This document shows positions 3,223 to 18,727 of a stretch of DNA of 64,000 nucleotides, piece by piece. Where the stretch lies: contig CAZAZU010000003.1 in assembly GCA_964490105.1 (NCBI GenBank), positions 245 through 64,244 on the forward strand, written 5' to 3'. The position numbers were made by a program, and so were the translations under genes. The notes beneath the pieces are model-generated. The model worked only from the letters and a program-made list of their open reading frames with translations. It was not told the DNA's origin and searched no databases. This DNA is from an uncultured Gammaproteobacteria bacterium. Its GTDB lineage: Bacteria; Patescibacteriota; Microgenomatia; Levybacterales; UBA12049. Position 1 is the first letter of the stretch. Every line of letters starts with the position of its first letter.

Positions 3223-5745
3223 TTAATTATTAACTACGCGAGGAATGCATGAATTGTTGCAGGCAGCCGGGGTTTGAATTTTTCGCGCATCTTCTATGTC
3301 TCCACAAAGCTTGCGATTGTTTCTGTATTTTGGATAATAGCAAAAGCAGTATGCCGTTTGCCAGGCCTCGAAATTGTTGCCAAGGCCAGCTTGAACTTTA
3401 TTGTATGAGACTGCGTTTTGAGCTTGTCTTTGCCATGGGACATCTCCCTTTGTATTTTTTTCCTCATTCCATGGCTTGAAAGGATCTACTCGTCCATTTG
3501 TGTAGCTTGAGTCCATTTGAAAATGTCCCCAGGTGTTATTACTTGATCCATATCCATTGGGGCCGTTGCCTACGGATTCGCATTGAGCTATTTTTACGAA
3601 GAAGTCTACTTTTTCCGGATCACTTTCAAAGCGAGACAATACCTGTCGTAGTTTTTCAAGAGAGAAGTTGCATAAGGGATCTCCGAAATTTGCAGCATTC
3701 ACGTTAAATCTTCTTCGGATAGTGCTCATAATACTTGCATAGTTGGCATTCCCGCAGTCGTCTGTTGTTGGCGGGCTATTTGCGCCTTCAAACAGGTCTC
3801 CGCTGTCATCAGGAGTTGAGATTTCCGCAGCGCACCCCTCAATATATATTCGATTAGTGATGGTTACGTCGTCTTCGGGGTTAATAGTTATCTTGAAAGT
3901 AAAGCTCATGGGGGCAAATCCTTTACTTGACGCTAGGTTTTCTGTTAGCTTCCATTTCACGATCGTTTCTGGATCTGAATCAATTCTATAGCTGCCAGTT
4001 GTAAGCTCAGATCCTTCTACGAGGGTTGACTGCGGCGGGATCGCATCTACGAATGTAATGTCCTCAAGATCGCATTTCGCTTCGCGTGAATCATGAATCA
4101 GCCCAATTTGATAGGTAATATTCTCGCCGTTTGATATTTCGCGAGGCCCGACCTTAAAATAAGAAATACCCGCATAAGGACTCTCTACAATAGCCTCCTC
4201 AGGTATAAGAGTATCGTCTCCTGACGGGGCAAAGAATATGGAAAAAATCGTTATAACAAGAAAAATTATTAATGCAATTAGGATTGCAAGCGGTAGGCTA
4301 ACGGCTGAAAGGGAGACGCCAATGCCTGTTAAAATTTTCGCAAGCACTATGGACGCAACACTTATAACTGTTCCTCCGATTCCTAAAATACTACCGGCAA
4401 TTGCGCTAAGCGCTGTGGTAAAAACTCCTCCGATGGCGCTGGCAACAGAGCCGATCAAGGATCTTTTAAACAAATTCAGAAGAAAATTCAGGGGATTAGT
4501 TAAGTTTTTTAATTTTTTACTAGCTAGATTAAGTCTTGAACTTAGTTTTCCAAGTTTCGTTTTTTGAAAACGTTGCCCTATCTTAGAATTGACAGCTCTG
4601 TGTTGTGCACTTGCTATTGCCCTGCTTCTAATTTGTCCCGGGGAGTAGTAGACTAATTTGCTGCGGAGAGTTTTATTGGCCTGGGGGGGCGCTGACTGAC
4701 CCCCTTTTAACGTATTCGGAGTAGTTTTATTTGCAAGAGTGTTTGGGGGTTGTGCGCCCGGTAGGGTATTAGATGGAATAGGAGTCCATGCTGTTGTGTT
4801 GGGCTGTGCTTGCTGCGAGGGGTTTAAGGGCTGGGGAATATTTGCAGTTGGATTTCTCCTAAGCGCTTTTGATAATCTGCTTTGATTTTGAATAGCTGCG
4901 GCTTCATCTCTTTGTCTTCTTCTTTCAATTGCGGCATAAAGCTCTGGGTCATTATATTTTTGCGCCCATTCTCTTGCGAGCTTTGGTGAATGTAGGGCTA
5001 TGTGGTCATGGATTTCTTCATTGGAACGAGAAATTGACATCGCTCGATCCCCGGTTCTTCTAGAAGGGTCTTTTTGATCCCATGCTTTTGTAGCGTTTGC
5101 TACATATTGTTTCCGTATTTGATCGAACTGAGCGTAGTCAAGATTTTTTCCCCTTGCGTCCCATCTGTTGATTGCCTGAGCAAGCTCCATATCGTTCGGG
5201 TTTTTACTTGCCCACTCTCTGGCCTTTTTCTCAAAATATCCCACGAGATAATCGTGTCTTTCGGCTTCCGCACGGTCATATGCCTCCTGCTGAGTGCCCG
5301 CCCTATTTGGATCTTTTTTTCTTTTTGGGTTTTTTTGAAGCTTTTTTTCCTCTTTTTCCCAGCGTTTTGCAAAAATTTCTCCGTATTCATTAGAGTGTTT
5401 CTTGAATTGCTCGTAAGTCATTTCTTTGTCTCGTAAAAGTTTTATTCCTCCAATTGTCAATCCTACCGCACCTAGTCCAGGCAGAGTAGATGATGTTTCT
5501 TTTGATGTGGAGGGTTTTGCTGATTCAATTGATATTTCAGCGCCTAAGGACCTTGCTGTTCCAAGATCTGCCCTCCCCTGCCAAAGCCCTAATGAATTTA
5601 GAAGTCCATTGTTCGTTAAGATTTTTTCGAATTCTGCAAAGTCTTTAGTTGTTAAGATTGCGTTTTGATCAGCAGGGGAGAGGTTTTCGATTTGCTTAGC
5701 AAACCATCTAGCATTCTCTATGATTAATTTTGAATCATCGGCCAT
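3223..5745 (-). CDS. Large membrane protein with C-terminal lysozyme-like (Rpf/transglycosylase-like) domain; candidate T4SS-associated peptidoglycan hydrolase (VirB1 analog)
   Basis: 840 aa. Central Gly/Ala/Ser-rich multi-TM segment (GSVASAIGGVFTTALSAIAGSILGIGG...IFLVITIFSIFF). C-terminal KIAQCESVGNGPNGYGSSNNTWGHFQM resembles the CESGGNW...GYYGGLQFS..TW transglycosylase-like motif. Lies immediately downstream of VirB4. Confidence 0.5.
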   Translation of the reverse strand: MADDSKLIIENARWFAKQIENLSPADQNAILTTKDFAEFEKILTNNGLLNSLGLWQGRADLGTARSLGAEISIESAKPSTSKETSSTLPGLGAVGLTIGGIKLLRDKEMTYEQFKKHSNEYGEIFAKRWEKEEKKLQKNPKRKKDPNRAGTQQEAYDRAEAERHDYLVGYFEKKAREWASKNPNDMELAQAINRWDARGKNLDYAQFDQIRKQYVANATKAWDQKDPSRRTGDRAMSISRSNEEIHDHIALHSPKLAREWAQKYNDPELYAAIERRRQRDEAAAIQNQSRLSKALRRNPTANIPQPLNPSQQAQPNTTAWTPIPSNTLPGAQPPNTLANKTTPNTLKGGQSAPPQANKTLRSKLVYYSPGQIRSRAIASAQHRAVNSKIGQRFQKTKLGKLSSRLNLASKKLKNLTNPLNFLLNLFKRSLIGSVASAIGGVFTTALSAIAGSILGIGGTVISVASIVLAKILTGIGVSLSAVSLPLAILIALIIFLVITIFSIFFAPSGDDTLIPEEAIVESPYAGISYFKVGPREISNGENITYQIGLIHDSREAKCDLEDITFVDAIPPQSTLVEGSELTTGSYRIDSDPETIVKWKLTENLASSKGFAPMSFTFKITINPEDDVTITNRIYIEGCAAEISTPDDSGDLFEGANSPPTTDDCGNANYASIMSTIRRRFNVNAANFGDPLCNFSLEKLRQVLSRFESDPEKVDFFVKIAQCESVGNGPNGYGSSNNTWGHFQMDSSYTNGRVDPFKPWNEEKNTKGDVPWQRQAQNAVSYNKVQAGLGNNFEAWQTAYCFCYYPKYRNNRKLCGDIEDARKIQTPAACNNSCIPRVVNN

Positions 5746-5747
5746 AG

Positions 5748-7724
5748 TTACGTGCTTTTATCAAAATCGGAAAACCCAGGAATAACTTGAGGCTGAGGCG
5801 AAGCTTGAACGCTTGAAATGCCACTATTTGCGCTCGGCTGCTGAATGGGTTGAGCGTTCAATTCTGGACCTGGTAATCCTGACGTGTTTGCAAATGAAGT
5901 ATCGTTCATTATTTTTTCCTGCTGAGCCCTTTTTAGAAGTTCCTCGGGATTTGAGGTTATTAAATTGTGCTCGAAGGGGGCCGAAAGAACCTTCATAGAT
6001 ACATGACTTTGACCTGCGAAAAATAGTCCTTCCCCGACATTTGCCGAAAGAAGAAGCTGTTTTTCTTGCTCTGAAAGATAAAAAATCTCCGATACTAGAT
6101 CAACTTCGGTAGGGCTTTGCTTTAAAAGCATTTGAATGGATGAGTTGGAAAGTATTGCTTTTCCATAGTCAGTAGAAAGAAAATCTTGAACATCTTGCGT
6201 TGCGGTAGTTAATGCTAAGTAGTATTTTCTCGCTCTCTTAGCTACCCCATGGATAAAAGAGGCTGAATCTTGGTATTTCATTAAATACCATGCCTCATCT
6301 AAAACCAATAGACGTTTTTTGAGGTCTTTTCTAACCCTTGTCCAAATAAAATCTAAGATTATATGCATGGCAACAGGGCGTAGTTGATCTTCAAGTCCCT
6401 GAGTGGAAAAAGCTGTAAGAGGATTTTTGATATCGAAATTTGATTGTTGGTTAAAGATTCCCGCCATGCTCCCTTTTATAAATTTTTCCAGCCTTAGAGC
6501 AAGATCCCTTGATACTTGATCTTCATTCCCAATCAAAACCTTATAAAGGTCTTCCATGAGGGGTGGTTCCTTGGTTTGCGTAGTTGGATCTGCGGTGATC
6601 CCCTTTTGCTTATAGGTTTCGACTAGTGCTCTGTCTAATATTGCGTCATATGAAGCGTCAAGGTCTCCCATGACTATCCTAAGAAGCGCATGAAGCGATA
6701 AGATTTTAAGACCCAACTCGTTTTCTCCCTCTTCATATCTTCCTGAAAGATCAAACGGATTAATTTTAACGGGTGAAGCTGGAGTAAACTCTATGTATTC
6801 TCCTCCCATGGTTCTTGTTAGAATTCCATATTCGCCTTCAGGGTCTATTACTATCACTTCGGTTCCAAACATAAACTGCCTCATGACCTCAAGTTTTATT
6901 AAATACGATTTTCCGGATCCTGATTTTCCAAAAACTACTTCGTTTCCGTTCTCAAGAGAATAGCGGTCGAAAATTATAAGCGAGCCGTTAAGTTGATTAA
7001 TTCCATACATTACGCCTTTGTCTTGCGTTAATGTGGCAGAAGTGAAAGGGAAAGTGGACGCAAGGGACGTGGTATCCATATTTCTGGGAAGAAATAATTG
7101 ATCTTCGGCTAAAGGAATTGTAGATTTGAATCCGTCTTCCATTTGAAGCGTGGCTGGTTTTGCTATAACAAGAATAGAGGCGAGTAGAGTCTTAAGTCTT
7201 TTAGATGCCTCATCAAGCTCGTGTTTTTCTTCCGATACTAAGGTGATGTAAAGACTGAATTGAAAGAATCTCTCAATACCTTTCGCTAGCTCTTCCTGTA
7301 CCGCGAGCGCATCTTCAAGAGCTGCTTGTACCTTAGGGTCTAAAACTTTATTGTTTTGCTGTTGCTCCATTAAGGTTGCTTCCATTTCACCAATCTTCCT
7401 TCTCAGGTCATCAAGAGCATCGGGAGATGACGTTGGATAGCAGAACATTGAGATATTTAAGGAATGATCGAAATCAATTAATGGCTCAAGCCAATTTGGA
7501 GAAACAAATCTGGGATATCCTACCACAAAAAAAGTTTTATAGAATTTTTCTCCTACGCGAATATGCCCAAAATCTACCTCAATCGATGCTGGAGCGATTA
7601 TGTCAGTAACAGAATTCATTCCCCTTTCGATTCTGTTTATCCCTGCATTTGCTGGATGAGCCGTTGCCCCAGGGATAGAATGTTGTGGGGATTGAATTGT
7701 TTTATTTTTGTTAAATAATTTCAT
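5748..7724 (-). CDS. virB4: VirB4/TrsE/CagE-family type IV secretion ATPase
   Basis: 658 aa. Walker A GKSGSGKS, DPEGEY motif, Walker B LLVLDEAWYLM, then ...TATQDVQD. Overall VirB4-like architecture. 4-nt overlap with the upstream gene. Confidence 0.85.
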   Translation of the reverse strand: MKLFNKNKTIQSPQHSIPGATAHPANAGINRIERGMNSVTDIIAPASIEVDFGHIRVGEKFYKTFFVVGYPRFVSPNWLEPLIDFDHSLNISMFCYPTSSPDALDDLRRKIGEMEATLMEQQQNNKVLDPKVQAALEDALAVQEELAKGIERFFQFSLYITLVSEEKHELDEASKRLKTLLASILVIAKPATLQMEDGFKSTIPLAEDQLFLPRNMDTTSLASTFPFTSATLTQDKGVMYGINQLNGSLIIFDRYSLENGNEVVFGKSGSGKSYLIKLEVMRQFMFGTEVIVIDPEGEYGILTRTMGGEYIEFTPASPVKINPFDLSGRYEEGENELGLKILSLHALLRIVMGDLDASYDAILDRALVETYKQKGITADPTTQTKEPPLMEDLYKVLIGNEDQVSRDLALRLEKFIKGSMAGIFNQQSNFDIKNPLTAFSTQGLEDQLRPVAMHIILDFIWTRVRKDLKKRLLVLDEAWYLMKYQDSASFIHGVAKRARKYYLALTTATQDVQDFLSTDYGKAILSNSSIQMLLKQSPTEVDLVSEIFYLSEQEKQLLLSANVGEGLFFAGQSHVSMKVLSAPFEHNLITSNPEELLKRAQQEKIMNDTSFANTSGLPGPELNAQPIQQPSANSGISSVQASPQPQVIPGFSDFDKST

Positions 7725-8383
7725 TTTACTAGCCCTGTGTTTGGTTTTGCGCCCTTAACAATGGTGTCGCTAATGCCGTCTGAGATATGGGCACCACTGT
7801 CAGAATTGTAAATTTCATAAAAAAGCCTAATGAGTTCGTTTTTTTCAAGAATTTTTGATTTTACACCTGCTCTCATGAGCTCCTGAATGACAGATTGAGC
7901 TTTTGACATAAGAAGATTTCTAGCGTCAATGATTACCGCTTGTTTATTTTTAGCGTTTGAGACGCCACTGACTCCTTTTTCGAGAAAGGAAAATGAAATA
8001 GCAATATAGAATTTTTTATCAAGCACAGACTTATCGCGAACGAGTTGCGAGACAAAATCCTTATACATATTTATTTGAGCTGCAAGATTTGGATTAAGAG
8101 CTTTTTGAGCCTGCTGTTCCAGGAGCGTTACATATGAGCTTATGTCTAATTTTCTGCTTAAAATAACAATCTGAATCGGAAAAGAAAGGGAGTTTAGAAG
8201 GGAGGCATATGAAAGAATTTTTGCCTGCTGTTCTTCGTTTGATTGTAAAGCAAAATTTGTAGCTACGATCTCCATAATCAGGCAGGCATTCCCTCCAGAA
8301 AGAATAACCATATTTTCAACAATGTCTTCGATTTCTATAAATTTTTGCGTTGTTGCAGTTATTTTCTGAGCAGAGTTTTTCAT
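7721..8383 (-). CDS. Hypothetical protein inside the T4SS-like operon
   Basis: 220 aa with no TM segment. ATGA overlap with virB4 suggests translational coupling. Confidence 0.4.
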   Translation of the reverse strand: MKNSAQKITATTQKFIEIEDIVENMVILSGGNACLIMEIVATNFALQSNEEQQAKILSYASLLNSLSFPIQIVILSRKLDISSYVTLLEQQAQKALNPNLAAQINMYKDFVSQLVRDKSVLDKKFYIAISFSFLEKGVSGVSNAKNKQAVIIDARNLLMSKAQSVIQELMRAGVKSKILEKNELIRLFYEIYNSDSGAHISDGISDTIVKGAKPNTGLVK

Positions 8384-9663
8384 TAGTTAAAAAGCTCCCT
8401 TCTTAATTCTTCTCTTGAGTCAACCGAGAGTATCTCAAGCGGCATAATAGGTGCGCCCGTAGCTTCAATTTCCACCGCATCGAATCTGTTTTGAGCTTTA
8501 GGATCTTCAAATGTGATTATGTATTTCCCGTTTGAAAGGGAGGTGGCAGCTGCGAATTGCCCAAGTCCGTTAGTTTTAAACGCTCTTACAGGGTTGTCCT
8601 GAGGATCTTTAACCTCTACGAGTATATTGGGTAAGGGATTACCTCGGGGATCCTTTACAATGCCTGTTATGAGATTTGGCTCTTGTGTGGCAGCGGGAAT
8701 TCCTATGCTTTTTTCCATTCCCGGAGGAACTTTTCTTACCCTCTGAGTTTGGGGAAGGGTATTAAGAGTTGTAGGATTAAACTTAGGTTGGGTTTGTCCT
8801 TCGAGCTTTGCCTTAAGCGATAAAAGTTCTTTTTCAAGCTCCTCTCTCTGTCTTGTAGCTTCAATTAATGCTTTTTCAAGTTCCTGAGTTTTTTGATGCA
8901 TGGTTCCAGCATTTGCGATATTAGTTTCTGTGTTCTCGAGCGCTTTTGCTTCCTCAAGCTCTTTTTGAAGCGTAGATACTTCAGCTTCGAGCTTTTTTTC
9001 GTTTTCTTCAATTTTTTCTTCAGCTTCCTCAGCTTTTGCATCAACAAGGTCATCTAGGTTCCCTGAAAGCATTGCTGGCTGAGTATTATCCGGAAGCTCT
9101 ACCACTTTGCCAGGCATATCAGTTGGAGCTTGAGTAGGCGGAGCTGGTTGAATTTGCGGTTGAATTGCCTGGATCTGAGGTGATTCTTGGGCAGGTTGGG
9201 GCATTTGCTGAAAGACTTGGAGTGGTTGTTGAATAGGCTGCTGAGCAATTGCCTGAACGGGCTGCGCCTGTTGGGGCTTAGTCTGTTCTTGCTGATTACT
9301 TAATATAATATTTTGAGGCCGAGCTTGTTGAATAGTCTGATTGGGGACTGAAGCAAGACTGCCTCCTGATTTTTTATAAATATATTGAGTTGGTGCAAAC
9401 ATAGCCTTGATTAGATTAATAATCATTACATCTAGGGGTCGTCCGTCTACGGGTATGAAGGCTAAGGCTACTCCTAATCCCAGGAACAGGAGCGCCAATG
9501 GGAGTTTAATTATAAGGAAAATAGGTAGTATAAAAAAACAAAACCATGCTAGGACAGTGCCTCCAGCTAGATATGCAAATTGCTTAACGGTCATATTGCC
9601 GATAAGCTTAAATTGAAACCCCGTAATGTCTTGCGGTATTGGATGATTCTCCATAGGCAGCAA
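8383..9663 (-). CDS. Membrane protein with two N-terminal TM helices (VirB3-like position), Q/P-rich linker, coiled coil and C-terminal CarboxypepD_reg-like beta-sandwich
   Basis: TM helices AYLAGGTVLAWFCFFILPIFLIIKLPLALLFLGLGVALAFIP. QQP-rich low-complexity region. Heptad-like EEAEEKIEENEKKLEAEVSTLQKELEEAKALE. C-terminus GIVKDPRGNPLPNILVEVKD...TNGLGQF...GKYIITFE. Confidence 0.45.
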   Translation of the reverse strand: MLPMENHPIPQDITGFQFKLIGNMTVKQFAYLAGGTVLAWFCFFILPIFLIIKLPLALLFLGLGVALAFIPVDGRPLDVMIINLIKAMFAPTQYIYKKSGGSLASVPNQTIQQARPQNIILSNQQEQTKPQQAQPVQAIAQQPIQQPLQVFQQMPQPAQESPQIQAIQPQIQPAPPTQAPTDMPGKVVELPDNTQPAMLSGNLDDLVDAKAEEAEEKIEENEKKLEAEVSTLQKELEEAKALENTETNIANAGTMHQKTQELEKALIEATRQREELEKELLSLKAKLEGQTQPKFNPTTLNTLPQTQRVRKVPPGMEKSIGIPAATQEPNLITGIVKDPRGNPLPNILVEVKDPQDNPVRAFKTNGLGQFAAATSLSNGKYIITFEDPKAQNRFDAVEIEATGAPIMPLEILSVDSREELRRELFN

Positions 9664-9789
9664 ACAAAATAACTACTAGTATCTAGTACCTATTTACTAG
9701 CTAATAGAATATAACGTGAAAAAAAGGGATTCAAGGCGATCGAAATAGATCAGTTTTAGAGAAAAATGAAGCTAATTGTGAAAACCTCT

Positions 9790-10197
9790 TTAAGGAGTAA
9801 AGCAGGATCCTGATCTGCACTGTTGGATGTCTGGGCGCGGACAATCAAAGCGATCCGTACAAGGGACACATTGGGAAAACCCAAACCGGGTTATGCAGGC
9901 CTCTCTTACTCCGGTAGCCTTTGCAATAACAGGTAAGATTATAAAAGACAAAAGAATCAAAACAAAACCAAGCACAGCGAACGTGAGAGTTTTCCTCGCT
10001 CCTTCTGCTTGCTTAGGATCTCCACCAGAGGTTACAAACTTAAATCCACTAATAATAATAAAGATAATAGCTACGAGCCCTGATAAAACCAATAACCAGA
10101 AAATAACATTTCCGACTATGACCGGGAAACAGTTGACCGTAGCGACTTGATCGCCTCCTCCTACTAAACAACCGCTATCTTTTAATGCTTGCCACAT
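9790..10197 (-). CDS. VirB2/TrbC-like two-TM pilin-like protein, paralog 1, with Cys-rich C-terminal tail
   Basis: 135 aa. Hydrophobic hairpin around the conserved TSGGDPKQAEGARKTLTFAVLGFVLILLSFI motif. C-terminal 8-Cys tail. Confidence 0.55.
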   Translation of the reverse strand: MWQALKDSGCLVGGGDQVATVNCFPVIVGNVIFWLLVLSGLVAIIFIIISGFKFVTSGGDPKQAEGARKTLTFAVLGFVLILLSFIILPVIAKATGVREACITRFGFSQCVPCTDRFDCPRPDIQQCRSGSCFTP

Positions 10198-10242
10198 AGA
10201 GTTAGCGTAACAAAGAGAGATTTAAAAAACAAGGGGAATAGA

Positions 10243-10668
10243 TTAGTCAACCAAGTTAGGGATAATGATGTTTCCTCCGGTTAGTGATCCGGCATCAAAT
10301 AGCTGTAATACGAAGTTGATGATAAAGTAGGAGACGAAAACAAGCACTAAGCCTACAAGTGCAGCTACGATCGTTCCTCTTGCAGCCTCTACTTTGCCTT
10401 TATCCCCACCAGACATAATCCATTTGATTCCTCCGTAGACTAGAAATCCGATAGCTAATATAACAGCTACTATGAATAGGATTGTTATTATATTTGAAAT
10501 CATTGGACCTACTCCATCAGCCCCAAGCGAACATAAAGCTCCAAATCTGAGTCCTCCGCCTGGATTGTCAGCGCATGGATCAATCGGACCAAAATCCTGA
10601 GCAAATGCAATTGGGGTAAGACTTAAATAAGTTGCTGTAGAAAATATTAGAGCAGATAACTTTTTCAT
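10243..10668 (-). CDS. VirB2/TrbC-like pilin-like protein, paralog 2
   Basis: Signal peptide MKKLSALIFSTATYLSLTPIAFA if the ATG at 10666-10668 is used; the ORF track's 10707 start is TTG. Hairpin with MSGGDKGKVEAARGTIVAALVGLVLVFVSYF motif. Confidence 0.55.
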   Translation of the reverse strand: MKKLSALIFSTATYLSLTPIAFAQDFGPIDPCADNPGGGLRFGALCSLGADGVGPMISNIITILFIVAVILAIGFLVYGGIKWIMSGGDKGKVEAARGTIVAALVGLVLVFVSYFIINFVLQLFDAGSLTGGNIIIPNLVD

Positions 10669-10722
10669 TAGTAATATGATCGTATGAGGTTTTGAATTGT
10701 TTGTCAAGAGGTAAATTCGAGG

Positions 10723-11178
10723 CTAAAATGCACATCCCGGTCTAGATGGATTACATTGACACCTGTATCTTCCGGTATCCGCATCTCTTCTGCATAAGGG
10801 TCTGTCTGGATTTGGACAAGTTCCAAATGTGTCACCTCCGCATCTTGAGGTGCTAGCGGGTAGATCTAAAACCTTTACTTGGAAAAGAGCAGAAACGGTG
10901 CTAATTATCATAAAAGATGCGAAACCAACTATAAGACCGATTATTGCATAGATTATTTTTTTTCTTGCCGCCTCAACTTTGTTTTTGTCTCCTTGTGATG
11001 TTATATAGGAAATACCTCCCCAAATTAGAAAAAAAAGCGCAGTCAGCGTGAGGAGTATGAACAACACTGTCATTCCGTTTGAGATAAGACTAAGAAGGGT
11101 TTCGTCTCCTCCTGATGGCATTCCCATAATAGGGTCAATTCTTTTTCCGCCAGGTAGCGCTAATGCAATTTTTTCCAT
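10723..11178 (-). CDS. VirB2/TrbC-like pilin-like protein, paralog 3, with Cys-rich C-terminal tail
   Basis: Hairpin with TSQGDKNKVEAARKKIIYAIIGLIVGFASFMI. C-terminal Cys-rich CGGDTFGTCPNPDRPLCRRDADTGRYRCQCNPSRPGCAF. The track's N-terminal 11 aa (MIFWDYLDLDN) is read-through into the 349-bp repeat, so the start was trimmed to the ATG at 11176-11178. Confidence 0.55.
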   Translation of the reverse strand: MEKIALALPGGKRIDPIMGMPSGGDETLLSLISNGMTVLFILLTLTALFFLIWGGISYITSQGDKNKVEAARKKIIYAIIGLIVGFASFMIISTVSALFQVKVLDLPASTSRCGGDTFGTCPNPDRPLCRRDADTGRYRCQCNPSRPGCAF

Positions 11179-11179
11179 A

Positions 11180-11528
11180 TTATCTAAATCCAGGTAGTCC
11201 CAGAATATCACGGGTTATTAATTCAAGTAAAGCTAAGGAGAATATTATGAACAGAAGTCCAACTATCGCTGCGGTTAGTTGATCTCTGGCATTCTTAACT
11301 TTCTCAGGATCTCCCTGGGAAGTCATCAGCTTATATCCTGCAATAATTATGATTATTATTACTATTCCTCCGGAAATGCTTAAAACAAACCCAAGCATCC
11401 ATCTGGTAAATCCAGCTGAATCTGTTCTCACAAATCCGATTGCTGTTTTAATCTTTGTACACCCCTTAGCATCTGTATATGATGATCCATTCTTAGCACA
11501 AGGAAGGGAGAGAGGGTCATTTTGTTGA
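11180..11528. repeat. 349-bp direct repeat, copy A (3' end of pilin paralog 4 plus the junction)
   Basis: Appears identical, on reading, to 12141-12489. Encodes the shared C-terminal pilin module. Confidence 0.85.
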
Positions 11529-12097
11529 AGAGTCGTATCGCTTTCATAATCAGTATGAAAGCCTGGGACATCTCCCTCAGCAAAAGGCCTACAGAGGGGT
11601 GTTTTTGAGTCAGAGTAAGCCTTAGAGGTCATTTGATAAAACTTGCCATCTGCTGGATCCTTAAATACGCAGTAATTCATACTACATAGATTGCCTAGGC
11701 CTTTTCTGCACTGGTCATTGCTCGTGGTGCATGTGTCGCTAGCGTTTAGTTCACAGCGGTCTGTTTCGTCTGGAACATCTCTCACCTCACATCCTCTATA
11801 TGCATTTGCGCTACATATTTGATCATCTGGGCATGGTGAGGGAGGGTTTGGGTTAGGCGCTCGTTGTTCGCTTGAGCATTCGAAAGCCGTTTGGCTTGGA
11901 TTGCAAACCACATCGTCATTAACATATACACATTTCCAAACTCCGGCATCGTTATAAGGGTGTGCAGTTTTTCCGCTTACTCGAGGGCATGTAAAGCAAT
12001 CGCTGCCATTGCCTCGAGCGGCAAATGATGGATTTGATCCAAGTGCAAAAAGTAGGAAAAAAAATATAGGGACGAGAATTGTTAATATTTTTCTCAC
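11180..12097 (-). CDS. Secreted Cys-rich ectodomain fused to a C-terminal VirB2-like pilin module, paralog 4
   Basis: GTG start in frame at 12095-12097 gives signal peptide VRKILTILVPIFFFLLFALGSNPSFAA. About 20 Cys in the ectodomain. The C-terminal 116 aa are identical to paralog 5 (YKLMTSQGDPEKVKNARDQLTAAIVGLLFIIFSLALLELI). Confidence 0.55.
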   Translation of the reverse strand: MRKILTILVPIFFFLLFALGSNPSFAARGNGSDCFTCPRVSGKTAHPYNDAGVWKCVYVNDDVVCNPSQTAFECSSEQRAPNPNPPSPCPDDQICSANAYRGCEVRDVPDETDRCELNASDTCTTSNDQCRKGLGNLCSMNYCVFKDPADGKFYQMTSKAYSDSKTPLCRPFAEGDVPGFHTDYESDTTLQQNDPLSLPCAKNGSSYTDAKGCTKIKTAIGFVRTDSAGFTRWMLGFVLSISGGIVIIIIIIAGYKLMTSQGDPEKVKNARDQLTAAIVGLLFIIFSLALLELITRDILGLPGFR

Positions 12098-12140
12098 AAC
12101 TTTATCGTAGGTAAAACTTAGAGGAATTGCAAGAAAGGGG

Positions 12141-12489
12141 TTATCTAAATCCAGGTAGTCCCAGAATATCACGGGTTATTAATTCAAGTAAAGCTAAGGA
12201 GAATATTATGAACAGAAGTCCAACTATCGCTGCGGTTAGTTGATCTCTGGCATTCTTAACTTTCTCAGGATCTCCCTGGGAAGTCATCAGCTTATATCCT
12301 GCAATAATTATGATTATTATTACTATTCCTCCGGAAATGCTTAAAACAAACCCAAGCATCCATCTGGTAAATCCAGCTGAATCTGTTCTCACAAATCCGA
12401 TTGCTGTTTTAATCTTTGTACACCCCTTAGCATCTGTATATGATGATCCATTCTTAGCACAAGGAAGGGAGAGAGGGTCATTTTGTTGA
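12141..12489. repeat. 349-bp direct repeat, copy B (3' end of pilin paralog 5 plus the junction)
   Basis: Appears identical to 11180-11528. The copies are 961 bp apart. Confidence 0.85.
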
Positions 12490-13535
12490 TATCTGATACT
12501 GCTAACGCAGCCCTTTCCTTGTATGCATCTAAGGTTATTTCTTTCATTACAATAACCTTTGCTTTCCGGCATCGCTTCATCTCCTGACGGCGTAACGCAC
12601 TTACCATCATTCCATGTGTCAGTGCTTTTGCATTTATAACATGTATTTCCGAAGTCTTCGGGAGCTTCTTTGCAAGTTCCCGTAAGAGCATCTCTGCCGT
12701 TTTTATCACAAATTAAATTGTCGCAGCAGCTGCCCTGACTGCCTGCATTACCGCTACAGGTTTCCCCTTTATTATTGCAGAAGTCGGGTGGCGGATAGCC
12801 TTTTGGATATGCGCAGTATGTTCTAATTTCATTGCCCTTTCTGTTATTACATCGTGGACCAGGCCCCGATCCGCACACATTGCCAATTCCCTGAACCTCC
12901 TTGCAGTCATGAGTGCTTTTAGGGCAATTAGGATCTCTATTAGCGCACCAATCTCTTTCAGAGTCAGGGGTAGTACATCTTCCTTCTCCGGCAACACATC
13001 TTGTTCCTTGGGCAGAGCAATCAACTCTTGAAACAGGGTCTCTTAATTCGCTTCCCTTTACGCATAGATCTGCTGCGTTGCTCCATGTAAATCCCGAAGC
13101 GCATCGGGGACAGCTTTGGGGCGTTGCGGGGATTGGATTTGTTGCTGAGCAGTCAGCAGCAACCACATCTGGTCCTGGAGTGAAGCCTGCGGTTTGGTCG
13201 CTGCAGCCATGGTCAAACCCTCCGCCTATATCGCACTTGGAAAGTGTCCAGCTGATTGTTTTTCCTTCCTGGCTTTTTGAAACGTCAATCGTGTAGGGAG
13301 AAGATGTTATTCTGGTTTCCGGTATGCCCGTAGCGTTAAATTTCCAAAAGTAGCTATTACTATCTGCCGTAGAGTATGTCCATTCAAACTTAATTCTGGA
13401 AGTTTCATTGTCTGGTCCCCCACAAAACGGGTTAGCTCTAAGGTTTTGTGGCGGATTGGGAATTGCGTGTGCGACTTCTGGTAAAAAAAATACCATTGCA
13501 AGAAAATAAATAACTAAGATCAGAATTTTTCTCAC
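12141..13535 (-). CDS. Secreted large Cys-rich ectodomain fused to a C-terminal VirB2-like pilin module, paralog 5
   Basis: GTG start with signal peptide MRKILILVIYFLAMVFFLPEVAHA. More than 40 Cys in the ectodomain. C-terminal 116 aa identical to paralog 4. Shares a 27-bp 5'-end block and the 349-bp 3' block with paralog 4. Confidence 0.6.
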   Translation of the reverse strand: MRKILILVIYFLAMVFFLPEVAHAIPNPPQNLRANPFCGGPDNETSRIKFEWTYSTADSNSYFWKFNATGIPETRITSSPYTIDVSKSQEGKTISWTLSKCDIGGGFDHGCSDQTAGFTPGPDVVAADCSATNPIPATPQSCPRCASGFTWSNAADLCVKGSELRDPVSRVDCSAQGTRCVAGEGRCTTPDSERDWCANRDPNCPKSTHDCKEVQGIGNVCGSGPGPRCNNRKGNEIRTYCAYPKGYPPPDFCNNKGETCSGNAGSQGSCCDNLICDKNGRDALTGTCKEAPEDFGNTCYKCKSTDTWNDGKCVTPSGDEAMPESKGYCNERNNLRCIQGKGCVSSIRYQQNDPLSLPCAKNGSSYTDAKGCTKIKTAIGFVRTDSAGFTRWMLGFVLSISGGIVIIIIIIAGYKLMTSQGDPEKVKNARDQLTAAIVGLLFIIFSLALLELITRDILGLPGFR

Positions 13536-13571
13536 AACTTTATCGTAGAAGAATAAAATTCGATTTGCAAA

Positions 13572-14879
13572 TTAGGAAGAGAATTTAAAGCCTCGGCCTT
13601 TTATTGTTTGGATGTGCGTAGGAGAGTTAGGGTTTTCCTCGATTTTTTTTCTTACCCTAAAAATTAGCTGATCTAAGGCTTGCTCAGTTACTCCTGCGGT
13701 CGAAGCTTGATCTCCCCATACGCTACTGATTATCTCGTCTCTCTCTAAGATTTTTTCAGGGTTTAAGGCTAAGAATTTAAGCAACTTAAACTCTGAGGAT
13801 GTTAATCCTTCAGATAGGATGAGATTGCCTTTTATTATTTCATTTGTTGACTCATCATAGATAATCTCATTTTTGGCGTTTTTAAGTTCATTTTTTGCAA
13901 ATTCTTCTAAAAGGGGAACAGCAAATTTATTATTTTTGACTAAGTCTATTGCCACTAGATGGCTTGATTCGGTAGCGTCTTCCTTAGCAATTAGATTTTG
14001 CTCAAACGGGGTAAGGGATTTCCAGATTTCTGTTAAAACTGCCTTAACTCGCGTATTTGATAAAAGAAATTCTTTAATGTTCTTTTTAACCCCTTCATTG
14101 ATGCACGCTTCAGTACTTACAAGCCATAGTTTTCCCAAACCGCCGGTAACTTTAATAATTTCATCAAGAGTAGGTTGATTAATAGTTTTGTCTGTAGATT
14201 TTTTAATATAGCTTAACCTAAAGTTTCTAATTTTCTCATCTCCTAGCGAGAGATAGACTAAATTCCCTACTAAAAATTCATAAAAAGTTGATAAAACGTC
14301 ATGCCCTATTGTTTCCTCAAGCGGGCGATTAAGGGGAAAAACACAAGAAAATCTGTATTTTGCTCTGTCTCTTAATACTTTTAAGTTTTCAAAAAATACA
14401 GGCTCAACTACGCCCACATATTCTTCAAATTTGTCAAAAAGAAGAACTATGGTTAATTCCTTATGTAAGCATAAATAGTCAATTGTTTTTTTAAATCCTT
14501 GAAAAATTACTAACTCATCGCCTGATTTTAAACTCTCATCTAAGATTGCTTTGGTAAACTTATATTCTTCGTTCAGTTTTCTCTCCTGTAGGGAATCTAC
14601 GAGCTCTAAAAACATGTATTTAGTAGAATCAGACAGCGGTCTTTTTTTAATCTCAGAAAAATTTAGCATTACGAAATGGAACCATTTTTGATTTTCTCCC
14701 AGATGAAGATGACGCGCCTTTGTGTTATATGCAAGAATTCGAAGCACGTTACTTCTCCCAACACCGGGAAGTGAAATAACTTGTGCTGAATTACCACTTT
14801 TAATATAGGAAATTATTTTTCCTATTTCTTCTTTTCTGGAATCCGGCGGGTAAAGTGATTCAAAGTGCGTAGGTTCCAT
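13572..14879 (-). CDS. Putative transcriptional regulator: N-terminal ATPase-like domain plus C-terminal OmpR/PhoB-type winged helix
   Basis: C-terminus LSEGLTSSEFKLLKFLALNPEKILERDEIISSVWGD...TEQALDQLIFRVRKKIEENPNSPTHIQTIKGRGFKF matches the Trans_reg_C pattern. N-terminus has a degenerate P-loop-like LPGVGRSNVLR. First gene of the minus-strand block. Confidence 0.55.
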   Translation of the reverse strand: MEPTHFESLYPPDSRKEEIGKIISYIKSGNSAQVISLPGVGRSNVLRILAYNTKARHLHLGENQKWFHFVMLNFSEIKKRPLSDSTKYMFLELVDSLQERKLNEEYKFTKAILDESLKSGDELVIFQGFKKTIDYLCLHKELTIVLLFDKFEEYVGVVEPVFFENLKVLRDRAKYRFSCVFPLNRPLEETIGHDVLSTFYEFLVGNLVYLSLGDEKIRNFRLSYIKKSTDKTINQPTLDEIIKVTGGLGKLWLVSTEACINEGVKKNIKEFLLSNTRVKAVLTEIWKSLTPFEQNLIAKEDATESSHLVAIDLVKNNKFAVPLLEEFAKNELKNAKNEIIYDESTNEIIKGNLILSEGLTSSEFKLLKFLALNPEKILERDEIISSVWGDQASTAGVTEQALDQLIFRVRKKIEENPNSPTHIQTIKGRGFKFSS

Positions 14880-14950
14880 AGCTTTGGTTATTTAATTGTA
14901 AGTGTTTTATAAGGTTTTTATCAAGCTCGTAGGAGTGGTTTGACTTAAAC

Positions 14951-17900
14951 TTGCTCCATATGACACAGGAAATTCTTACAGGATCCATTCAACAGATTCA
15001 GGGTAAGCAAATTGAATTGACAGTAAGAAGCATAAATCCTACACTGAATAGAGGGGGAGAAATCTTTATGTCAGACGCTGGAATTAATACTGAAGCACCA
15101 CAAGCCGTAAGACCTGTCGCAACAAGCGGGGAATTACCTGCTCTTCCGAGAGCGGGGGGGATGTCTCTTGAAGGATTGACTCCGGCTCAACAAATTGATG
15201 CCAAAAGAACTATAAAGCTTATTGAGGATCTAGGTTTTAAGCCAAAAGAAGTGACTTCTAAAGGTAGAACTGAGCAGACGGCTCAGTCAGTTGTTGAAAA
15301 TGCAGGCTTAGATAGTCAGGATCCAGTAGTTTTAAAAAGATCTCGCGATTTAGCAAATAAAGAAGATTTAACAGCAGAGGAGACTGCAGAACTACTTCAA
15401 GCAAATTCTGGGAGAATTTCAAAAGCAGAAGAGTTACTTAAGGAATCATTAGGCAGAGAATTAACTGATGCTGAGAAAAAAGCAATCTTAAGAGCTCATT
15501 TTGTGGGATTTGGTGAAAAAGGAAAAGATGAAAAAAGAGACTCTGGTGTATTTAATGTAAGCCAGGAGCAGTTAGCGGAAAAAGCAAGAATTCTTAAGGA
15601 TGCAGGTTTTGATAAAGAACAAAGACGAGAAATCATAGAATCAGGTCTTGCTGCAGGTGCTCCTCCAGCTCCAGCTAATCCCATGGATGCAAGAAATCAG
15701 GCAATTGCCGATCTGGCTAATCTAAATCTTACGTTAAAGCTTGCTGATATTAGAGACAAAATATTGGCCTTACATGCAGAAGCACAAGCGGGCAATCAAG
15801 GAGCTGGTCTAGTGCCAAATCCTGATGGAATATCTTCTGAGACATTTGATGCTATCTATAAAGGATTTTTTGAAAGAGTAAAAAATGTCTTGAACATGCC
15901 AAATCCCCCCGTTGAGGTTTTAGCACTTGAGCAGCAACTCAAGCAAATAAAAGATCTAGATGACAGAACTCACGAGCAACGAGGACCGCAAGAGAATTTT
16001 ATAAATGAATACGACTTTCTAGTAAAACAGCTTGTAGATGTTGGGCCAAATAATCCTCAGAGGCAGCAGTTTGAGCAAATGCTCGTAGATAGGGTTGTGG
16101 CATTTACCGCTTCTGGGGTTAATCCTTCAAATGACAATATTTACGATATGACTTTAAAGAGAATTATTCAAACAGATGTTTTAGTGTCGAATCCTGTACT
16201 ACAAGAGCAGGTGAGATCGGCGCTAGATAGATTGGTGGTTAGAATTGTAGGATTACCACTACAATCTGATACGGGAGATTTTGACATCGGATTTTATGGA
16301 GGAATTAATTTTGCCTCTATAAAAAATCTTTTACTCTCTATGTCTCAGGACCCATCATACTTTGAAACTAGAGAGATACGCAGGTTATATAGCCAAATGA
16401 ATCTAACAACAAGAGATGCGTATGTACAGTTTAGAGATACAAGAAGAGACCAGAATCTTAATGTGGGATCAAAATTTGAAGCAATGAGAATAGTCCATGA
16501 GTTAAATAAAATGATTGTTCAAAATCAGCTTGATGCTGCTAACCAGGCAGCGCCTCAATTAGGGCCTGAGTATGTTCAGGCATTGTCTAAGTCAAAAGGA
16601 GTTGCATCTGTATTCAGGATTATGGAGTCTGGAATTCTGGATCTTATGGCTAGAGATGGATATATGGCCAAAGGCAGATATGATGCATTAATGGGTAAAG
16701 CACAAAGTCAGGAAACTGGAAGATTTGATAACTCAGGAAATGCATCTATTGTTAAGCAGATTAGAAAAATGCAAGAGCAGCTGGGATCATTGCCGCAAGG
16801 TGCTCAAGCAGGATTAACTCAAGACATGAAGCAATTACTCCAGATGGAAGATTGGGAAGTAGACCTAGCATTTAATTTGGGAAGAAATCTTTATAACATT
16901 TTACATAGATCTGCTGAGCTATCTTCATGGGGAAGATTGCCAAAAGGACTTAAGGCATTTACAAATTCCGTATTTGGAGGATTTAGAAATATTTATAACC
17001 CTGGACTCCATGTTCTAGAAAGATTTAAGCCAGGCGCAGGCAGAGGAGGATATAGATTATTTGAAATGTTTATGGATGCAATGCAAAGACGAAGAAAAAC
17101 TATGGAAGGTTACGGAGACATGAATTTGGAGCAGGTTAGGGGCGACCTTATTAAATTCTTTGAGCTTCCTTCTATCGCTGGCCAAAGAGGATTTATTTCT
17201 TCATGGAAAGCAAATGAGGGAACCCTAACAATGGTGGAAACTAATTTTACCCCACAGGGTATTTTCGGTCAATTCGATATACATTCCCAAATGCACCTAG
17301 AGGAAGATGGATCAAAAATTTTTGATAGAGCTACAGGGATTGTGCCGGGTAGAGGCATTGGTCATTTCCTGGATACAGATGCGTTAACTTTCATTAATAG
17401 CGCAGGGGAGCAGTTTGAATGGGGTAAGCTATCAGATGGGCAGAAAGCTGATTATTTCAGATCTTTATTTTTTGAACCCGGAACGGGAGGCCACGGACAT
17501 GACCCAGTGTTAAGACGGGATATAAATATTGGATTAGGGGTAATTTATAAAACCGCGCTGGGGCCAGCGGGGGGGCATCATGGGCATGAAAGTCATCACC
17601 TCAATGAAGTTAAAGAACAAATAAGGAGATTGATATGGGAGCGCGCTGCTGAAGAAAATCCACTTGCAGTTTTGCCTTATCTACATAAGCTTAAATTTAG
17701 CGCCGATCATGCGCCTGTTACTGTAGGGCAGGGGCCTCAGGCAAGAACAGAGGTTGTGGCAGGAAAAACCTTACTTGCTGATGTGTATCAAGCACCAGTA
17801 ATGAGCGATTCCAAAGTAAAATTCATGCTGCTAAATGAGTGGAGAATGTCAAAGATTAAGGAAGGGAATCTCAACTACACTTTAGTTGATGCTATAAATG

Positions 17901-18727
17901 AGATTGATGCATCAATGGGAGTACAGAGAGATCCTATTACGCACGCTATAACCAATCAAGTCGCCGTTATGGGGCTTAGTCTCACTCAAGAAGAATATGA
18001 ATTATACGATAGGATTGTTGAGAGCGCAAAATTAGCATCTAGAGATATGGCAAATGTAAGGTATGGCTTTGTGGCATTTGCGAATGATCTTCCTTTTGAA
18101 AAAGAGAACTTTGATGTTTTGGGAAATAACGCATATCAAAGGCACTTCGGAGATGTGGTTCAGATAAATAGCTCAACACAAGCTATGATAGACGCATTTG
18201 ACAATCTTGGTACAGTAAAAGATTTTCATGGAGTGGTCGAGGTTGTGGGTAAATTTGAAAAAGGAATTACTGCAGTTCATGGGGATGCTGCAGCCAAAGA
18301 TAAAGCAGCTCCTTTAGTAGAGGCTATTACAAGATTTTTTAGAAGAGGTGAGAATGCAGGTGGAGAAAAATTCGTTGAAGAGGATAAAAAAGGCCCAATG
18401 GCTAAAATGAAAAGATATTTTAGGCAATGGGACGAGGTGCATTCAGTCTTGCAACAGTTTCATAAAGCAAACTCTATCGCTCAGCAGGAATATAATGTTG
18501 AAGCATTGGCATTAGATAGGCATCAGATTTACTTACTTCAGGAGGAGTTGATGGCAAGTGGATTTATGGGGCATGATCAGGAAGAGGAGTTTAGGAAAAA
18601 CTTTGGAGGGTTCTTGGGTTTTATAACAAGAATGATGCTTGAAGGATTCTTAAGGACTGGAAAATTATCTACGATAATAACAGCGAGAGGTTTGTTGGGG
18701 AGTTCATTTAAAGGTGCAATTGAATAA
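14951..18727 (+). CDS. Large soluble hypothetical protein (1258 aa), divergent from the regulator. The real start may be the internal Met at about 15069
   Basis: Long uninterrupted ORF with no TM segment. Helical, charged N-terminal third. His-rich motifs GGHGHDPV and GGHHGHESHH near 17490-17600. Confidence 0.5.
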   Translation: MLHMTQEILTGSIQQIQGKQIELTVRSINPTLNRGGEIFMSDAGINTEAPQAVRPVATSGELPALPRAGGMSLEGLTPAQQIDAKRTIKLIEDLGFKPKEVTSKGRTEQTAQSVVENAGLDSQDPVVLKRSRDLANKEDLTAEETAELLQANSGRISKAEELLKESLGRELTDAEKKAILRAHFVGFGEKGKDEKRDSGVFNVSQEQLAEKARILKDAGFDKEQRREIIESGLAAGAPPAPANPMDARNQAIADLANLNLTLKLADIRDKILALHAEAQAGNQGAGLVPNPDGISSETFDAIYKGFFERVKNVLNMPNPPVEVLALEQQLKQIKDLDDRTHEQRGPQENFINEYDFLVKQLVDVGPNNPQRQQFEQMLVDRVVAFTASGVNPSNDNIYDMTLKRIIQTDVLVSNPVLQEQVRSALDRLVVRIVGLPLQSDTGDFDIGFYGGINFASIKNLLLSMSQDPSYFETREIRRLYSQMNLTTRDAYVQFRDTRRDQNLNVGSKFEAMRIVHELNKMIVQNQLDAANQAAPQLGPEYVQALSKSKGVASVFRIMESGILDLMARDGYMAKGRYDALMGKAQSQETGRFDNSGNASIVKQIRKMQEQLGSLPQGAQAGLTQDMKQLLQMEDWEVDLAFNLGRNLYNILHRSAELSSWGRLPKGLKAFTNSVFGGFRNIYNPGLHVLERFKPGAGRGGYRLFEMFMDAMQRRRKTMEGYGDMNLEQVRGDLIKFFELPSIAGQRGFISSWKANEGTLTMVETNFTPQGIFGQFDIHSQMHLEEDGSKIFDRATGIVPGRGIGHFLDTDALTFINSAGEQFEWGKLSDGQKADYFRSLFFEPGTGGHGHDPVLRRDINIGLGVIYKTALGPAGGHHGHESHHLNEVKEQIRRLIWERAAEENPLAVLPYLHKLKFSADHAPVTVGQGPQARTEVVAGKTLLADVYQAPVMSDSKVKFMLLNEWRMSKIKEGNLNYTLVDAINEIDASMGVQRDPITHAITNQVAVMGLSLTQEEYELYDRIVESAKLASRDMANVRYGFVAFANDLPFEKENFDVLGNNAYQRHFGDVVQINSSTQAMIDAFDNLGTVKDFHGVVEVVGKFEKGITAVHGDAAAKDKAAPLVEAITRFFRRGENAGGEKFVEEDKKGPMAKMKRYFRQWDEVHSVLQQFHKANSIAQQEYNVEALALDRHQIYLLQEELMASGFMGHDQEEEFRKNFGGFLGFITRMMLEGFLRTGKLSTIITARGLLGSSFKGAIE

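Follow-up and report, generated by a model that had tools for sequence, protein, structure and literature searches.

How can two neighbouring genes share a perfect 349-bp 3' end when the extracellular domains that they encode show no mutual similarity? The question is raised by a pair of tandem minus-strand genes, designated genes 4 and 5, which encode the two 'long' members of a pilin array in a stretch of 64,000 nucleotides of contig CAZAZU010000003.1 (hereafter the window). The array belongs to a type IV secretion system (T4SS) gene cluster. The closest relatives of the VirB4 protein of this cluster (up to 91% amino acid identity) are all from metagenome-assembled genomes (MAGs) of Candidatus Levybacteria or other Patescibacteria and, judged from these, the organism, an ultra-small bacterium of the candidate phyla radiation, is a member of Ca. 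Levybacteria. For comparison, 26 related loci were fetched via VirB4 and one more, L027, via a homologue of gene 5; the window and all relatives are apparently metagenome assemblies. The explanation that we favour, with a probability of about 0.8 for the whole, is that gene conversion homogenises the shared 3' parts (modules), that the ectodomains in front of them evolve independently, and that ectodomain cassettes are replaced between lineages.

The repeat and the proteins that share it

The two copies of the repeat, at 11180..11528 and 12141..12489 (both minus strand), lie in direct orientation at a distance of 961 bp from start to start. A preliminary description of this locus had called them base-for-base identical and had named self-alignment as the check; in the alignment 349 of 349 bases matched, without a single mismatch. 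Outside both ends of the repeat the identity is immediately 18–36% per 50 bp. At its low-coordinate end the repeat coincides precisely with the TAA codon that terminates the two minus-strand genes: copy 1 comprises the stop codon, the last 115 codons and one further base of gene 4, and copy 2 comprises the identical module and stop codon of gene 5. The 116 C-terminal residues of the two products are identical, as had also been noticed before. A unique junction of 30 nucleotides (12111..12140, minus strand) leads from the stop codon of gene 5 to the start region of gene 4. No further fragments of the repeat or of either ectodomain could be identified in the 64 kb window, and inverted matches are weak only (20–34 nucleotides).

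Gene 4 (11180-12097, minus strand; 305 residues from a GTG at 12097) and gene 5 (12141-13535, minus strand; 464 residues from a GTG at 13535) each encode an AxA-type signal peptide, a Cys-rich ectodomain and then the 116 identical residues. The variable part of gene 4 (11529..12097, minus strand) begins with the GTG and specifies the signal peptide MRKILTILVPIFFFLLFALGSNPSFA and a 'type B' ectodomain of 163 residues with 14 cysteines. That of gene 5 (12490..13535, minus strand) begins likewise with its GTG and specifies a signal peptide ending in AHA and a 'type A' ectodomain of 324 residues with 28 cysteines. When GC and third-position GC content (GC3) were compared, the ectodomains (GC3 0.34–0.38) were found barely above their neighbours (0.28–0.34), and hence there is no compositional sign of a foreign origin. 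The ectodomain of gene 4 is nearly an orphan, with two relatives among 5.8 billion clustered proteins and four among 1.84 billion representatives; its orthologue is found in L002 (79% amino acid identity), and orthologues of the gene 5 ectodomain are found in L024 and L027 (about 80%).

A short pilin can be aligned with the shared C-terminal unit over the whole of its mature part. The shared unit contains the complete PF18895 pilin module, with a Cys loop of the type Cys-X13-Cys (PCAKNGSSYTDAKGC), two hydrophobic transmembrane helices around the sequence SQGDPEK, and a GLPGF(R) tail (GLPGFR in copy 1). In the AlphaFold prediction for gene 5 the module forms a helical hairpin (residues 386–418 and 423–458), with a predicted local distance difference test score (pLDDT) of 70–80. 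The preliminary description had spoken of a constant 'membrane anchor'; the constancy of the C-terminal part stands, and the anchor is better described as a complete VirB2-like pilin module, consisting of a Cys loop and a two-helix hairpin. In the ectodomain of gene 5 the N-terminal portion is predicted to fold as a beta-sandwich, for which a PDB fold search gave weak matches to FN3 domains (E 0.008–0.08) and no match at E <= 0.001. From the signal peptides, the even numbers of cysteines, the weak FN3-like fold and the extreme diversity of the ectodomains we infer that these domains may be exposed on the pilus or cell surface, where they may bind host ligands as adhesins.

Concerted evolution of the pilin modules

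Letters after locus names denote the long-pilin position: the promoter spacer of gene 5 (WIN_g5) is a-type and that of gene 4 (WIN_g4) is b-type. Comparison with the relatives shows that the tandem pair is old and predates the identity of its modules. The window is colinear with L002 from 9002 to 12489, a segment that takes in the ectodomain of gene 4 as well as the intergenic spacer (78% nucleotide identity), and with L024 from 12090 to 14982, where the ectodomain of gene 5 is covered (77%). Ectodomains of the same type have amino acid identities of 78.6% (WIN_g4 and L002_b), 79.3% (WIN_g5 and L024_a), 83% (WIN_g5 and P0002, the public record of L027_a) and 57.9% (L024_b and L006). The ratio of non-synonymous to synonymous divergence (dN/dS) between ectodomain orthologues is 0.03–0.15, and 0.06–0.15 for those with about 79% amino acid identity, indicating that the ectodomains are functional and under purifying selection.

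The modules follow a different pattern. Within a genome, their synonymous divergence (dS) is 0.000 in the window, 0.022 in L024 and 0.10 in L002, whereas orthologous modules of different genomes have a dS of 0.6–1.7 (14–25% different) and the backbone has a dS of at least 1. In a neighbour-joining tree the module pair of the window and that of L024 are each grouped with 100% bootstrap support. Modules that group by genome, next to ectodomains and spacers that group by position, are the classical signature of recurrent and independent gene conversion. Of the two processes considered in the preliminary description, recent conversion or duplication, it is conversion that is borne out by the within-genome tracts as set against the divergence of 14–25% between genomes. 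The boundaries of the exact tracts differ from lineage to lineage: the tract of the window has 349 bp, that of L024 338 bp, that of L002 291 bp and that of L014 289 bp. The two modules of L002 each open with 64 bp that are still specific to the position, shared with L027_a and L005_b, respectively, and the other 291 bp are identical; in L014 the 3' end of the module is still diverged. In both copies of the window the Cys loop (CAKNGSSY.DAKGC) resembles the one that the relatives have at position b, and therefore gene 4 was probably the donor and gene 5 the gene that was overwritten.

The alternative that no conversion took place, and that a module or a whole gene was recently duplicated in each lineage and fused to a new ectodomain, has some points in its favour, as such a fusion would also give sharp repeat edges and the copy number does change: L006, L007, L009, L010 and L011 have one long pilin only. 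However, between genomes with a backbone dS of at least 1 orthology extends to both ectodomain types, to the intergenic spacer and to the two kinds of promoter spacer, and the combination in L002 of 64 position-specific base pairs with 291 identical ones is that of a conversion tract. Recent duplication is in our opinion very improbable.

Similarly small is the probability that we give to an assembly artefact, in which diverged paralogs or the alleles of co-occurring strains were collapsed, or alleles were chained in tandem. Repeats of 204–349 bp exceed the usual k-mer sizes, the data are apparently metagenomic, and contigs of relatives do break exactly inside the module, where the near-identical tract begins (the end of L027 at position 10124 and the start of L005 at position 1); the breaks are attributed to the near-identical repeats, which fragment short-read assemblies. 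A mis-join at an assembly bubble, however, would not create the unique 30-nucleotide junction, which overlaps the -35 element and the spacer of the promoter-like site of gene 4 and has orthologues in L002, L024 and L005; the tandem arrangement is therefore old. In addition, the pattern recurs, each time with other tract boundaries, in five independent assemblies that come from different studies, and the assemblers kept adjacent sequences of 64–95 bp with 75–85% identity distinct. At most, the true identity would be 98–99%, which leaves the conclusion unchanged.

Next to no probability remains for selection at the nucleotide level, by which an embedded RNA, a regulatory element or an overlapping frame would keep the copies identical in place of recombination. 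A GTG-initiated frame in the repeat does enter the next gene at both copies, and the dS of modules between genomes (0.6) is somewhat below that of the backbone (at least 1). Yet orthologous modules differ between genomes at 35–55 synonymous sites in about 114 codons, which excludes such selection as the cause of the identity, and the extension in the alternative frame is not conserved, as the downstream genes of the relatives start at their own ATG or GTG.

This GTG, in a frame other than that of the pilin module, has consequences for annotation. At both copies it opens a reading frame into the next gene, giving rise to the false N-termini (MIFWDYLDLDN) that are present for both downstream genes in the list of open reading frames (ORFs), as the preliminary description had pointed out. 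The public record of gene 4 (P0005; 330 residues, 11180-12172) carries the same false N-terminus, which masks the signal peptide, and the ORF call for gene 3 (10723-11211, 162 residues) is a spurious extension starting inside the repeat. Orthologues back the GTG at 12097 (MRKIL...) and the ATG at 11178 as the true starts. In practical terms, such repeats both break or confuse short-read assemblies and cause wrong start codons in public databases.

Repeated segments could be observed elsewhere in the related loci. L014, a distant Levybacteria-like locus (72% amino acid identity of VirB4), has two long pilins in which shared blocks surround unrelated ectodomains: a 5' block of 118 bp with 85% identity, including promoter and signal peptide (783-898 and 2236-2351), and a shared module with 289 bp exact (1832-2216 and 3351-3735). 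Segments of adjacent short pilins of L011 (6216-6461 and 6794-7039) are 95.5% similar with an exact run of 204 bp, and adjacent short pilins of L008 (5542-5853 and 6301-6612) are 87% similar, indicating that homogenisation of modules is not confined to the long pilins. L011 also has a perfect 319-bp head-to-tail tandem duplication downstream of virB4 (13630-13948 and 13948-14266).

Ectodomain cassettes and their replacement

On the upstream side the ectodomains are flanked by a second, much shorter constant sequence. This block of 24 bp (cTACGATaaagtt plus GTGAGAAAAAT) is located at 12087..12110 in gene 4 and, without any mismatch, at 13525..13548 in gene 5 (both minus strand), and combines a -10-like hexamer, a discriminator of six nucleotides and the start codon with the codons that open the signal peptide. 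No match of this kind is expected in shuffled sequences (0 matches), and no further copies were found in the 64 kb window with three mismatches allowed. The shared 5' block of the preliminary description is thus real, although its length is 24 bp and not 27 bp and its coordinates were off by one or two bases.

The block is part of a promoter-like arrangement, TTGCAA-N17-TACGAT-N6-GTG, which precedes genes 5 and 4 as well as the long-pilin genes of L002, L005, L006, L007, L010, L011 and L024. The element of gene 4 (12104..12132, minus strand) has a b-type spacer conserved in L002_b, L005_b and L024_b, and that of gene 5 (13542..13570, minus strand) an a-type spacer conserved in L002_a and L024_a. 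Both were left unflagged by a generic sigma-70 scan (8 of 12 matches, below threshold), and were identified by their conservation. Similar elements on the minus strand precede short pilin gene 1 (TTGTTT-N17-TACGCT-N6-ATG, at about 10204-10232) and short pilin gene 2 (TTGACA-N17-TACGAT-N10-ATG, at 10679-10707), so that each pilin gene except gene 3 has a promoter-like element to itself, which ends 6 nucleotides (genes 5, 4 and 1) or 10 nucleotides (gene 2) before the start codon. A Shine-Dalgarno sequence is not visible at any of these four genes. The distance from element to start suggests that the pilin mRNAs are leaderless, and in two of them GTG would be the first codon. For the identity of the 24-bp block no cause beyond functional constraint is needed, and alone it is no proof of recent recombination; moreover, as the promoter spacers are position-specific and orthologous between genomes, the promoter region has not been homogenised recently. 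The block may nevertheless act as an upstream homology arm, since the left breakpoint of a cassette replacement falls there.

This replacement is seen between L002 and L027, both single contigs, in which the backbone is 92.7% identical and the module plus spacer 98%, whereas the ectodomains cannot be aligned at either position. The alignment ends at the start codon and restarts at the first base of the module. L005 shares a type D cassette with L027 at about 99% identity (5 mismatches in about 540 nucleotides), with a drop to 89% exactly at the start of the module; the backbone of L005 is 69–84% (about 80%) identical to L003, a contig from the same MAG as L027. The sequences suggest that this cassette was recently replaced by horizontal transfer. 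No additional near-identical cassettes came up when the type D long pilin (L005_b) was used as the query, so that the case for horizontal transfer rests on one pair of contigs, and a scan of viral contigs with the module gave nothing and hence no sign of a phage vector. In a wider set of 165 public long pilins, one module family is combined with 59 clusters of ectodomains, and half of the module pairs with at least 90% identity (18 of 36) are attached to unrelated ectodomains. Cassette exchange that varies the ectodomain on a constant anchor, as foreseen in the preliminary description, can thus be recognised on an evolutionary time scale, both in L002/L027 and in the 59 clusters.

It is very unlikely that the exchange is instead a programmed, high-frequency switching of ectodomains by silent cassettes, a shufflon or a diversity-generating retroelement. 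Variable cassettes placed between constant 5' and 3' blocks do recall expression-site systems, direct repeats of 349 bp at a distance of 612 bp must give appreciable RecA-dependent deletions, and host-dependent Patescibacteria could gain from variation. Both genes, however, are complete, each having a promoter-like element, a start codon and a signal peptide of its own, and it is the constant region that is converted and not the variable one, the ectodomains being under purifying selection. In the systems of Neisseria (pilE/pilS), Anaplasma (msp2) and Borrelia (vlsE) a single expression site is accompanied by many silent cassettes without promoters; these systems share with the present locus the conserved blocks that flank variable cassettes, and gene conversion as the mechanism, but in these systems conversion alters the variable part, whereas here it homogenises the constant part of two complete genes. 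A silent-cassette (pilE/pilS-like) system is at odds with the promoter-like element, start codon and signal peptide in both genes and with the lack of other copies of block, module or cassette in the 64 kb window. For the other classes, domain scans for recombinases, transposases, reverse transcriptases and relaxases took in the ORFs from 675 to 45963 of the window, and no recombinase, transposase or reverse transcriptase domain was found. The R64 shufflon, in which the site-specific recombinase Rci acts on inverted sfx sites of a type IV pilus gene (PilV tip adhesin), also combines a constant pilin part with alternative parts that specify the recipient, in a pilus associated with conjugation; the present locus has neither a recombinase in the ORFs scanned nor inverted repeats, its repeats being direct. 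A diversity-generating retroelement does not fit either, as the copies are identical and not A-mutated and are located in the conserved module, with no reverse transcriptase in the ORFs scanned.

We propose that genes 4 and 5 are an old tandem of independently promoted genes for 'long' VirB2-like pilins, and that the 349-bp repeat is the trace of gene conversion that took place very recently within the genome, through homologous recombination between direct module copies, probably by a RecA-type pathway. The conversion would have overwritten the whole module up to the limits of homology, which are set by the ectodomain junction and, at the opposite end, by the stop codon. Such conversion recurs independently in related lineages, the modules evolving in concert and the ectodomains independently under purifying selection. 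The constant flanks (promoter/start block and module) could serve as homology arms, both for replacement of a cassette by foreign DNA and for deletion of one gene. In consequence, the T4SS machinery and the short pilins would always meet an invariant polymerisation and membrane module, and the pilus or cell surface would show alternative host-binding domains. Saccharibacteria are naturally transformable (PMC10633639).

Several points weigh against this proposal or limit its reach. The perfect identity of the repeat could be slightly inflated if the assembler merged near-identical copies, and the cassette shared by L005 and L027 may reflect a chimeric contig, with the join inside the module. 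A relative of the same species was not found in metagenome or genome collections, which leaves the conversion without a date; a scan of metagenomes with the module gave 60 loci, none of the same species (best 75–81% amino acid identity) and none with further repeats within the locus. The promoter spacers are position-specific and give no sign of the 24-bp block having taken part in recent recombination. No recA was found by tblastn with Escherichia coli RecA, which is uninformative as the window covers 64 kb only. Finally, the prediction for gene 5 is of moderate quality (pLDDT 61, predicted template modelling score 0.28), with a poorly predicted ectodomain fold; given this and the weak FN3 matches, the putative adhesin function rests on architecture.

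The closest functional and evolutionary parallel is provided by the babA/babB and homA/homB genes of Helicobacter pylori, of which the 3' segment evolves in concert (Pride & Blaser 2002, as cited in PMC2795765). In these paralogous surface proteins a diverse middle part or ectodomain is combined with a membrane-embedded 3' segment that clusters by strain through intragenomic conversion, and chimeras and cassette replacement produce adhesin diversity. The H. pylori loci are dispersed and encode a beta-barrel anchor in the outer membrane of a diderm, and the process has been demonstrated experimentally; here the genes are in tandem, 961 bp apart, and encode a two-helix pilin module of a monoderm T4SS, with ectodomains that are unrelated and not allelic. 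Tandem virB2 paralogs beside virB4, with a strain-variable copy number, are also known from Anaplasma and Bartonella, for which a variable surface organelle has been proposed (PMC3556328 and references in PMC12102498). There, the variation is in short hypervariable stretches of small pilins, in contrast to fused ectodomain cassettes, and concerted evolution of the hairpin module is not a reported feature.

More directly related are the T4SS clusters of Patescibacteria, which have tandem arrays of VirB2-like pilins beside prgI and virB4, near dnaA/dnaN and without relaxase; the arrays are reported to be especially abundant in the Microgenomatia, the class that includes Levybacteria (PMC12102498). 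The present genes have the same PF18895 family and context. In this survey of 3,035 genomes the array members are highly divergent (mean 25% and maximum 54% amino acid identity) and no adhesins were tied to the system (PMC12102498); large N-terminal ectodomains, identical modules and gene conversion are not described. The array is essential in Southlakia epibionticum (PMC10633639, PMC12857230). The only genetically tractable Patescibacterium requires the T4SS and its pilin array for epibiotic growth, and the role of both is described as completely unknown (PMC11665869, PMC10633639).

Gene conversion and modular cassettes are well known as such, but in T4SS pilins of the candidate phyla radiation with large variable ectodomains they appear not to have been described before. 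At least in Levybacteria, some members of the array carry, in front of the pilin module, extracellular domains that are large, rich in disulfides and of extreme diversity, with at least 59 unrelated types on one module family. This would provide a modular way to vary what the T4SS pilus displays, in which the module is copied between genes and the outer domains are replaced between lineages, and it raises the hypothesis of interchangeable host-binding heads on an invariant, polymerising base of the pilus; the ectodomain sequences are likely to set host specificity. A further-reaching idea is that the long pilins are the missing host-recognition adhesins, and that a horizontally exchangeable pool of cassettes, which Levybacteria would swap after DNA uptake by homologous recombination in the promoter/start block and the module, together with standing heterogeneity within populations (the 961-bp deletion, duplications and chimeras), would allow an obligate epibiont to switch its host range; this we consider rather doubtful.

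The secretion gene cluster and its surroundings

The five consecutive pilin genes, all on the minus strand, match PF18895 (T4SS_pilin) with 33.2–38.0 bits, at a gathering cutoff of 26.6. All five also match the NCBIfam Mbov_0395 pilin-like protein with 32–39 bits, just under the cutoff of 40. The PF04956 (TrbC/VirB2) model gave 17 bits against a cutoff of 27.9; genes 4 and 5 are not small, carrying ectodomains of 163–324 residues. A comparison of the module sequence with PDB chains gave noise only, with no solved pilin matched. Short pilin gene 1 (9790..10197, minus strand; PF18895) encodes a protein with a Cys-rich C-terminal tail. Gene 2 (10243..10668, minus strand) has its probable start at the ATG at 10668, behind the TTGACA-N17-TACGAT element, the ORF call being 10243-10707. 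Gene 3 (10723..11178, minus strand) encodes 151 residues from the ATG at 11178, one nucleotide past the stop codon of gene 4. Short pilins 1 and 3 have no obvious cleavable signal peptide and share the Cys-rich C-terminal tail, with eight and six cysteines in the whole protein, respectively. Extracellular disulfide-rich decorations can thus be found at either end of the module in one and the same array.

Together with VirB4 and PrgI, the five contiguous pilin genes form a chromosomal, origin-proximal Patescibacterial T4SS cluster. The array is regarded as origin-proximal since dnaN (675-1790, plus strand) is located about 4 kb from the cluster, which matches the published observation for Microgenomatia (PMC12102498). 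The remainder of the window, up to 46 kb, contains housekeeping genes, and among the ORFs scanned none showed a relaxase or coupling-protein domain. Across the relatives the layout is conserved, with a regulator first, then one or two genes for long pilins and about three for short ones, a prgI-like gene, a hypothetical gene and virB4. The regulator in this layout is represented in the window by a winged-helix protein of 435 residues (13572..14879, minus strand) with a C-terminal OmpR-type DNA-binding domain; its gene is kept immediately upstream of the long-pilin genes in the relatives, and it is a candidate regulator of the pilin array.

The PrgI/VirB3-like protein (8383..9663, minus strand) has a long C-terminal extension with a CarboxypepD_reg-like domain. 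With 426 residues it is far longer than canonical VirB3/PrgI, and consists further of a Q/P-rich linker, a coiled-coil-like stretch and the C-terminal CarboxypepD_reg/Big-like domain. The VirB4-like ATPase (5748..8383, minus strand) is encoded by two adjacent, overlapping ORFs. The N-terminal one (7721-8383) has a product of 220 residues, matching positions 97–278 of the VirB4 model for Mycoplasma integrative and conjugative elements (NF045975), and the other (5748-7724) has a product of 658 residues with the P-loop domain (TraG P-loop/AAA_10).

Four large ORFs flank the cluster without a match in Pfam or NCBIfam, at 14951-18727 (plus strand, 1258 residues), 3223-5745 (minus strand, 840 residues), 18750-20351 (minus strand, 533 residues) and 20535-22082 (minus strand, 515 residues). 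Of their products, the one of 533 residues has a polytopic appearance and may represent a divergent VirB6-like component.

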